Shown piece by piece: positions 9,101-12,100 of a stretch of 64,000 nucleotides of DNA. Each line of letters starts with the position of its first letter. Position 1 is the first letter of the stretch. The notes below the pieces were generated by a model. That model saw nothing but the letters and a program-made list of their open reading frames with translations, did no database searches and was not told the origin of the DNA. The stretch comes from Paraspadella gotoi (taxonomy: Eukaryota; Animalia; Chaetognatha): the NCBI GenBank assembly GCA_051294375.1, contig CM119263.1, forward strand, positions 13,718,414-13,782,413, written 5' to 3'. A program made the translations under genes and the position numbers.

Positions 9101-12100
9101 ACGAACAAACGTTTCAATGTCGCAATATGTAAAAAAAAATTATAAATGGATAATTAAAAAAAAACCATAAGCTATCAGGATCAATCTTTCTGTTTTAATA
9201 AAACTAAAGGAAAACGATTTTTCCTACCCTCATTCCCTCCCAACGCGACACGGCTCTGAGAGGCCTCAGCGCGCGCAGGGTTCTCATTGTGCGAAATGCC
9301 GGAATGCTAGCGTAGCCCATAATGGCCGCCGCTAGGTTGATTATGGAAACCTTTGTGAGTTGAACAGTCAAGTATCGTGGTATGGATCGTGAAAAAGGAG
9401 CGCGGGTTTGACAAGATTTGGGGATTTTAAGGGGTCGTGGATGCCAGCGAGGTCGTGGTCGTGAAAATTACGGGTCATCAAGGATCGGTGGGGGGGCGGG
9501 AGGAAGGAAAACAAAAGAAAAAGATGAGATCGTCAGCGTCGTGAAAGACTCACCCTCATCCCTTCTAGCCTTGACAAGGCTCTCAGCGGTCGAAGGGCTC
9601 GCAGCGTCCTCATCGACCGGAACGCGGATACGTTTCCCAGGTTCAGCATGGCTGCAGCTAAATTGATTAGCGATACCTGCGTAAATAGGAGGGAGGGGAG
9701 GCGAATAGGGATTCCGTTCAAAATTCACCGCAAAAATAAGGAAAAATCTATGTTTGGTTTTTTTTTTCGCTCTACGTAGTACAGAAAGTAAAAGGCGCAT
9801 GTTCCGAGTAGAACATATGTCAGCCAACGCTGGGCAGAATTGGGCGATAGGATTGTGGAACGAAATGAAAATGTGACGGAGGAGAGTACTCCTTCACTCG
9901 ATAATAGAATGTTATGGTACTAATACTATTTAAGATGCAAGTAGTTATTGTATTAACATACATACGGTACTAAAATATAAGCAGGTGAGTTATAGGGGAG
10001 TTAAATATATTTTTACAAATGTTAATAAACGTTTAAAACTATCATTTAATGTTCGGTAAAGTTGAAATACGAAAAAAATATTCGAACTACGTATTATTCA
10101 AAATAGGAACATGCAAAAATTTATGAAAGAGTGACGCAGCTGCGAAAGTTGATGTAGTGAAATGAGTATCATGATACTGTATATATATTTATATACATTC
10201 ATATGTTTAATCAATAAGGTCGTCAGTGAAAGTGCTAGTTTTGAAGAATAAAGCTGAACCAAATTGGCTTCATCAAATAATCGATCGTCTCATAAATAAT
10301 TAAATGAAATGTGAAAAAAAATACCAATTACGATTTTATAGAAACTTGAAAAAAATTGCAAGACATTAACACGTACAAGGCTAACACAACGAATTTGGGG
10401 CGGAGACGTTTTGACTCGCATGCGTCCTAAAGATGATGATGCAACGTGATAATTTTAATGGGGACTCTAAACCGAAAAAAAAAAAGAGAGAATCCTACTA
10501 TGAATGCTCGGCATTCAACTAATTTATGAGAAGCTGAAGAGTGAAGTAATTATAGTGCCTTCTATCGTTTACGACATGCCAAAAGCGTAAGGGGTAGGGG
10601 TTTATTGAGATCTTTTAAATTTTCACTTACAGCTACAATGATGAAATCTAGCCAACACCAGGCGTTGGTGAAGTAAGTCTTGAAACCCAGTGCTAGCATT
10701 TTTACAACCATTTCAATGAAAAAGACAACTGTGAATACGTCGTTCATTCTATCCAGGGTGACTTGTAGCCATAGGCGGTTTTTCAGGTCTACATCCTCTA
10801 CAGCCTGATCGCGTCCGATTCAGAGAAAAATCGAGTAGTTGTCAGGTAAGGAAGTCATCGCGGTAGAAAATTAAAGATGAAAAATCATGAAGCGGAAAGA
10901 AGGCAGCAAAAGAAAGATGAAAGAAAAAGTTTTATTGTTGTTACTGTGTACAGATATGGTATTAGATAAACGCCGATTTATATCAAACTTCTTGATATTT
11001 AAAAAAAATTACTCGCACATTTTTTTCCGTTAAGTTTTCAACTGTCCATTCGATATTTAAAACAAAAATAACTAATCTTGGACGACCACGGTTTAAAATG
11101 ATGAAGCCAAATTATTCTCTTGATTGGAAAAAAGCTATAAGCCAATCTTTGGGAAATAAATCCTCAAAGTGCAAAGAGAGGATATTGTAAAGATTTTAAA
11201 GAAACTCGACTTGGAAAATATCGAGAGAAAGGGACAGTTGAGATTTTGACGACGATCAAAAAAAGTAGGAAGAAACATTAGTTAAAATTCGACGTAAATT
11301 AACTTACGGCCACAATGACGATGTCTAACCAACACCAGGCGTTGGTGAAATAACTTTTAAAGCCTAACGCTAACATTTTCACAATCATTTCGATAAAGAA
11401 TATAATTGTGAATATTCTGTCCATGTACAATAATATGTACTGCAACCAAATATTATGGGGAATGGAATGATCTTCTACGGCCTGTGGATCAAGATTGATA
11501 TGGATAACAAGACGGCAAAAAAAAATCAAGATAAAAATATTTTAGTAAAAGTTCAAAAAAATTTATTTACATTTTTTTGGTATATTGTTACTTTACTTTA
11601 CGACAAAATGCTTGTTCTAAAATTATTCTTTACTCACCTCCCCCAATTTTTCGTGACCCAATGGCTATACGAAATGCACCGATTATATAATTACATTTAA
11701 ATACATTTTCAGGCGAACCATTTGCTAACACAGCGGATGGAAAAAAAAAACAACCAAAAACTAGAATAGCTAGATAAGTTCACTTCACTTCACTGCACTT
11801 CAGGCGAAATCAGGGAGCTCGGGACTCACGGCCACAATGACGAAGTCCAGCCAACACCAGGCGTTGGTGAAGTAGGTCACGTATCCCATGGCAACCCATT
11901 TGGTCAACATCTCGAATATGAAAATGATCGTGAAGCCCCGGTCCATGTAGTGAAGCGTGTACTGGAGCCAGTCGCGGCCCGGGAGATACACGTCTTCCAG
12001 GGCCTAGTCAATCCGCGAAAACGTCGAATTTTCCATAAGAGTTCAACTCGGATTCGGAAATGTGTTAAAACAAAAAAGCACACTGCACACAAGCTATGAA

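Follow-up and report, generated by a model that had tools for sequence, protein, structure and literature searches.

The stretch of 64,000 nucleotides analysed here (contig CM119263.1 of assembly GCA_051294375.1; called the window below) carries on its minus strand a sodium channel gene of the Nav1/para type, in which one exon of the voltage sensor of domain III is present in three versions, A, B and C. The conserved exon blocks of domains I, II and III–IV are stop-free in translation, and the stop-free gene model holds four domains with the selectivity filter D-E-K-A, read from TQDFW, GEWIE, FKGW and SAGW; its best-scoring matches are para channels. The three exons correspond to residues 1223–1279 of human Nav1.5, that is, to the S1-S2 loop, S2 and the first half of S3 of domain III. 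They are followed by two k/l-like exons, which agree with the k/l exons of insect para in both position (IIIS3-S4) and length (123 nt), whereas the triplet exons of 174 nt do not. The members of this pair are identical at 29 of 41 residues, with a proportion of differing synonymous sites (pS) of 0.82.

Exons A, B and C each comprise 174 nt or 58 codons in phase 0, with an open frame, an AG before and a GT after them, and all coordinates given in the initial annotation could be verified. Being adjacent and homologous, alike in length and phase, and flanked by intact splice sites, they have the characteristics of tandem duplicates. In a search with a hidden Markov model (HMM) of 72 homologous exon peptides they scored 87–96 bits, compared to 19–24 bits for the next-best matches in the window, which are paralogous helices of other domains, and their homology is therefore not due to chance. 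Contigs of three DNA sequencing runs (X5, X6 and X7, representing three other samples of one study) were compared with the window. They cover C and A in all three runs and B in X5, X6 and partly X7, with no differing letters listed within the exons; therefore, the triplet is not an assembly artefact. All three exons contain the ten-residue motif described previously, and pairwise identity among them amounts to 62–64% at the DNA level and 35–38 of 58 residues. With pS at 0.78–0.82, synonymous sites are saturated and dS is undefined, while the proportion of differing nonsynonymous sites (pN) is 0.23–0.26; a value of dN/dS cannot be computed, but it lies far below 1. This supports the earlier proposal of old duplicates under purifying selection, as do the copy-specific counterparts in other species described below. 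The flanking introns had been judged dissimilar, and a blastn comparison of the six local introns indeed yielded only short, mainly A/T-rich matches. The GC content at third codon positions is 0.83 in exon A, in comparison to 0.52 in B and 0.50 in C. Upstream of exon A, at 12181–12216, lies a short dispersed repeat, on which contig depth is very high in each of the four runs compared.

The differences between the copies had been assigned to the extracellular S1-S2 loop. The three loop sequences, VDLKNRLW among them, are as claimed, but the divergence extends to S2 and S3. Over codons 21–38 (S2), A and C have only 7 of 18 residues in common, compared to 12 of 20 in the loop; B and C diverge most strongly over their first 20 codons (9/20 identical). 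The most telling differences sit in S2 and S3 and not in the loop alone. For comparison we used 159 distinct other peptides, many of which belong to related insects or are isoforms and hence are not independent. Phe28, Glu31, Lys35, Trp51 and Asp53 are identical in A, B and C. Exon C alone has Asn21, where all 159 other peptides have Asp, and Asp22, which occurs in none of the 159, while A and B keep Asp21. Exon B alone has Ile54, a position occupied by Phe in 159/159 others. Position 21, which we take to be the extracellular S2 counter-charge of the sensor, corresponds to D1069 of human Nav1.4 (derived from the range 1092–1148 minus an offset of 43 residues, as found on comparing two entries for Nav1.5, with Ala at residue 1049). 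The exchange D1069N is a myopathy mutation that impairs the human channel; in the mutant, activation lies at -15.8 instead of -20.0 mV and fast inactivation at -60.2 instead of -65.8 mV (PMC4766374, Table 3). By analogy, activation and fast inactivation of the C isoform are predicted to be moved by a few mV in the depolarising direction.

A profile search of 1.84 billion representatives retrieved short genomic open reading frames (ORFs), each of which is far closer to one copy than to the others. Counterparts of C match it at 54 (P0183) or 53 (P0184 and P0185) of 58 residues, the counterpart of A (P0187) at 50/58 and that of B (P0217) at 42/58; the best named channels reach 42/58 against the triplet exons. 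The changes of C at positions 21 and 22 recur in P0183–P0185, and Ile54 of B recurs in P0217. An exon tree of 58 columns and 32 rows, whose deeper forks lack resolution, groups A with P0187 (support 85/81), B with P0217 (94/87) and C with P0183 and P0185 (98/95), B being sister to C (97/93). In addition, the intronic read-through of P0217 and the B-C intron have three 4-codon words in common, at donor distances of 65/69, 157/168 and 198/201 nt. A match of three words was reached in 2 of 5000 shuffles, and none of the words was found in five other introns, which argues for P0217 as the orthologue of B. Every member of the triplet is therefore under purifying selection and kept across species, the counterparts lying on separate short contigs. 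The presence of a separate counterpart for each copy suggests that the triplet predates the split of the window species from the counterpart species.

Four of nine sequencing runs, none of which is on record as RNA, were compared for splice joints: the three DNA runs and X9. Record 25 of X9, a contig of 967 nt with a depth of 19.5, contains the joints 8985/9554 and 9676/10631 with GT-AG ends, and it runs past 10804 with letters matching the end of the upstream exon. Neither joint occurs in the contigs of the DNA runs X5, X6 and X7, which argues for one mRNA form that uses C alone, with A and B skipped, together with the exon ending at 9676 alone. Hence, mutually exclusive use, as proposed in the initial annotation, is supported as far as one transcript joins the upstream exon, C and the first k/l-like exon, while the junctions of A, B and the second k/l-like exon were not seen. 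Likewise, one of the six postulated combinations of the domain III sensor was observed, and the other five were not seen in X9. A third joint in the contig comparison, from 9208 to 11741, is likely a repeat artefact, given its 21 letters on the short side and its non-canonical ends.

Table 1. Position of the sodium channel gene, its domain III exons and the sequence elements considered for exon choice in the window.
Feature	Position	Strand	Remark
Nav1/para-type sodium channel gene, DEKA filter	1869..39277	-	5' end is a candidate start codon
Upstream exon: end of II-III linker and IIIS1	12707..13246	-	The spliced X9 contig ends, beyond exon C, in the last bases of this exon
Exon A: S1-S2 loop, S2, S2-S3 linker, first half of S3	11830..12003	-	Donor gtgagt; counterpart P0187
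Exon B	11308..11481	-	Donor gtaagt; Ile at position 54; counterpart P0217
Exon C	10631..10804	-	Donor gtaagt; Asn21-Asp22; spliced in X9 record 25; counterparts P0183-P0185
First k/l-like exon, IIIS3-S4, 123 nt	9554..9676	-	In X9 record 25, spliced to exon C on one side and to the downstream exon on the other
Second k/l-like exon, IIIS3-S4, 123 nt	9228..9350	-	Not included in the spliced X9 contig
Downstream exon: IIIS4-S5 linker, S5, pore loop	8650..8985	-	Joint at 8985 in X9
Conserved word 1, B-C intron	11231..11242	-	Predicted hairpin arm with about 11036-11058
Conserved word 2, B-C intron	11139..11150	-	Common to P0217 intron
Conserved word 3, B-C intron, candidate selector	11098..11110	-	Common to P0217 intron
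Candidate docking site, intron after exon C	10264..10275	-	12-nt perfect complement of word 3 (11110-11099)
21-nt near-palindromic block in A	11851..11871	-	Identical in all three exons
21-nt near-palindromic block in B	11329..11349	-	Identical in all three exons
21-nt near-palindromic block in C	10652..10672	-	Identical in all three exons, near 3' end

A survey of copy number had been suggested for arthropod Nav1 loci and was carried out here on a broader set of 80 metagenome loci, which by sequence resemble insects, crustaceans, fishes, tunicates and spiralians. The HMM found one strong match to the triplet's exon in 79 loci, none in one locus and two in no locus. In 50 of the 80 loci, the sequence extends from the upstream exon to a k/l-type exon, and in 34 of these spanning loci the exon has introns on both sides (27 distinct peptides). 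At least two IIIS3-S4 exons are present in 16 of the 50 spanning loci. Two spiralian-type loci (L002:1393-1939 and L017:6809-7786) have two IIIS3-S4 exons each, and by sequence the k/l-like pair thus occurs outside arthropods too. Protein sets are a weak survey for duplicates because a gene model incorporates just one of the alternative exons. Nevertheless, two of 303 stored proteins with the domain, P0151 and P0328 (one cluster, ENA), contain two tandem copies of the same exon, so that its duplication is not unique to the window gene. These annelid-like copies are identical at 41 of 58 residues and are separated by a 10-codon spacer (about 30 nt) with an intron-like start and end; the longest contigs measure 823 and 221717 nt. 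Judged from the protein records, the spacer would be short enough for steric exclusion, making this a candidate pair. The two copies represent the spiralian FTDAW type and fall with leech-like sequences in the exon tree (87/88), so their duplication is likely to be independent.

Searches of the open literature aimed at a duplication of this Nav1 exon found no prior description, in agreement with the initial annotation, although much of the work on invertebrate sodium channels is published in subscription journals. The accessible parts of PMC6259924 and PMC5295241 contain nothing on the triplet's exon. A link between this exon and RNA editing in Drosophila could not be confirmed, and the ESM Atlas returned generic clusters only.

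The gene had initially been treated as an arthropod Nav1, which is not supported by our trees. These comprise 16 to 33 rows of one gene under a simple model, with one myriapod and without a tardigrade, onychophoran, scalidophoran, nematomorph or chaetognath; those cited here are a quick tree and IQ-TREE runs. In every tree built, the window gene does not group within Euarthropoda but is sister to all sampled euarthropods, sea spider included, with values of 99–100 on both sides in the Shimodaira-Hasegawa-like approximate likelihood ratio test (SH-aLRT, IQ-TREE). The para gene of Pycnogonum litorale is a distant relative, and this sea spider was therefore rejected as the source of the window. 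The approximately unbiased (AU) test rejects grouping with spiralians (p 1e-4), Strigamia (2e-7), chelicerates (1e-5) and pancrustaceans (8e-38). The motif in the I-II linker is of the arthropod type. The window gene is probably not from an arthropod, and a survey limited to arthropods is not the fitting comparison. From these trees, the simplest placement would be among ecdysozoans other than arthropods, for instance tardigrades, onychophorans, scalidophorans or nematomorphs; a chaetognath was also considered, although grouping with the sampled spiralians is rejected.

With good confidence, we hypothesize here that A, B and C are tandem duplicates which likely form a working three-way mutually exclusive cluster and supply sensor III with three alternative front halves, likely to differ in gating. 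The S2 counter-charge would be the likely functional lever, with Asp21 in A and B as opposed to Asn21-Asp22 in C. The loops may also alter a binding surface, given that the immunoglobulin (Ig) domain of vertebrate beta1 lies over the voltage-sensing domain III (VSDIII) (PMC9204039). We infer that only one triplet exon is ever included per transcript, that other cells or stages make use of A and B, and that the three isoforms differ in function. As double inclusion stays in frame, mRNA decay could not police it, and the choice must fall at splicing. Several points weigh against this hypothesis. X9 was taken as RNA by guess, and the spliced form comes from one contig of one study. Exons A, B and the second k/l-like exon have no cover in X9 and none of them was seen spliced; contigs drop rarer forms, and the missing cover is no evidence of silence. 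The counterparts are single-exon ORFs on separate contigs of 0.5–1.8 kb, and a complete triplet in any one relative is presumed from them. Finally, Asp22 in C may compensate for Asn21.

The one spliced contig, which contains C alone, would also fit a gene in which only C is used, A and B being remnants of the duplication that are silent or in decay, and the counterpart of B is far more diverged (42/58) than those of C (53–54/58). We nevertheless regard this as very improbable, because the frame, length and splice sites of A and B are intact although their synonymous sites are saturated, the counterpart of A retains 50/58 residues, and that of B retains both the diagnostic residues and the intron words. 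It is also unlikely that all three exons are used as near-equivalents, with subfunctionalised expression and without a real difference in gating or binding. The identity of the five core sensor residues (Phe28, Glu31, Lys35, Trp51 and Asp53) in all copies and the shift of only 4–6 mV caused by human D1069N are consistent with near-equivalence, but drift alone is not expected to keep copy-specific changes at sites invariant in 159/159 peptides, and these changes recur in the counterparts. Alternatively, the selected difference might be the extracellular S1-S2 loop as a binding surface for an auxiliary subunit or ligand and not the gating charge, which we consider rather doubtful. The strong divergence of B and C over their first 20 codons and the position of vertebrate beta1 speak for it, while no partner is known for this animal and A and C differ more in S2 than in the loop.

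How one exon of the proposed cluster would be chosen was considered from the introns. The A-B and B-C introns measure 348 and 503 nt, with AG-free zones of 41–137 nt, including 107 nt for B and 137 nt for C, and these lengths rule out steric exclusion via a far-upstream branch point. Word 3 and the candidate docking site form the best inverted match of 15 intron pairs (P 0.009 alone, but about 0.13 after correction over the 15 pairs), and their pairing is present in the minimum-energy fold but absent from the centroid fold, being enclosed by the word 1 hairpin. If formed, it would loop out C and lead to the use of B, and without this pairing C would be the default exon. The A-B intron offered no convincing pairing partner for the docking site (best -16.8 vs -22.5 kcal/mol), which means that there is not one selector for each non-default exon, and a matching docking word was not found in the read-throughs after the C counterparts. 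In the 21-nt block, synonymous sites match at 5/5 positions compared to 3/19 outside the block (about 3e-4 by the codon usage of the gene), and among 128 possible encodings the block shares the first rank in self-duplex strength. It has no strong intronic partner, the best reaching -21 kcal/mol compared to -28 to -31 kcal/mol with its own copies, and gene conversion accounts for it equally well. From these folding and matching results, control of exon choice by RNA pairing can be suggested only tentatively. The chances are about even that the block reflects gene conversion or codon habit, that the intron complement is due to chance, and that splicing proteins and not RNA structure choose the exon. 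The block was selected post hoc, the same palindrome occurs in 1 of 25 distinct blocks from single-copy loci, and the corrected P as well as the long AG-free zones of B and C, which suit factor-bound polypyrimidine tracts, speak for this view. Against it stand the matching synonymous sites of the block, its rank as a self-duplex and the coincidence of the intron arm with an independently conserved word. A further 12-bp match (12032-12021/11295-11284), which would loop out A and B, had a P of 0.06 and was not seen in the P0217 intron. The listing of inverted repeats was dominated by A/T runs.

Tandem duplicated exons in the voltage sensor III of Nav1 are also present in insect para, where k/l are mutually exclusive (PMC3805903). 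The cockroach versions G1/G2 affect the amplitude of the current as well as activation and the sensitivity to pyrethroids, while 27A-27D of Liposcelis comprise three cassettes and a splice-site variant (PMC3805903). In contrast to the triplet, the k/l exons encode IIIS3-S4, one exon downstream, and the triplet's exon is single in 79/80 loci. In CACNA1C (Cav1.2), the mutually exclusive exons 21/22 encode IIIS2 and part of the IIIS1-S2 linker, and inclusion of both results in a non-conducting channel (PMC5748662). These are, however, two exons of 60 nt in a vertebrate calcium channel, while the triplet consists of three sodium-channel exons of 174 nt reaching S3. Among vertebrate and Drosophila genes for sodium and calcium channels, tandem duplicated exon substitutions have arisen recurrently and independently; the accessible part of the respective study mentions neither an event at this exon of Nav1 nor a triplet of this kind (PMC9741552). 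Exon clusters of Dscam and srp are controlled by a docking site and selectors (PMC6071210). The window may resemble them, in that a conserved word of one intron is complementary to sequence beyond a variable exon. The window differs in having only one selector, not one per exon, and a docking site that is a candidate. The annelid-like proteins P0151/P0328 resemble the triplet in possessing two tandem diverged copies of its own exon.

While the mechanism of tandem duplicated channel exons is familiar, the new elements are the position, for which no description was found, the triplet, the loss of an invariant counter-charge in one copy and the probably independent duplicate. Invertebrate Nav1 channels are usually tuned by splicing, and the known cassette of sensor III is the S3-S4 exon; the triplet would add a tuning point at S1-S2/S2/S3. 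If one of the three is chosen, the choice would adjust the voltage of channel opening and closing. The triplet also provides a natural test of the domain III S2 counter-charge, as one isoform holds, in conserved form, the change that impairs human Nav1.4. Together with the probably independent annelid-like duplicate, the triplet suggests that duplication has struck this exon repeatedly. A wider scenario would place in a non-arthropod ecdysozoan lineage a 3 x 2 module of sensor III, in which splicing replaces, in a regular isoform, an elsewhere invariant S2 counter-charge under the control of competing RNA pairings that include the exon palindrome, with an independent annelid-like duplicate; that all of this holds is speculative, and we consider it rather unlikely.

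Further duplicated exons were observed in domain I (DI). Two 92-nt exons of DI S3-S4 (31450-31359 and 31190-31099, minus strand) sit where, presumably, exon 5N/5A of vertebrates does, and in the first of them Cys replaces Phe within S4. Another pair consists of two 61-nt exons of the DI extracellular turret (28801-28741 and 28503-28443, minus strand). The DI pairs and the two DIII clusters could give 2 x 2 x 3 x 2 = 24 channel forms. Long acidic runs are present in the II-III linker (13040-12920) and in a candidate N-terminal exon (39140-39090, both minus strand). The intron in the III-IV linker (8414-4004, minus strand) starts with AT and ends with AC, and no other boundary keeps the frame; an AT-AC intron at the III-IV linker is also a feature of vertebrate sodium channel genes.
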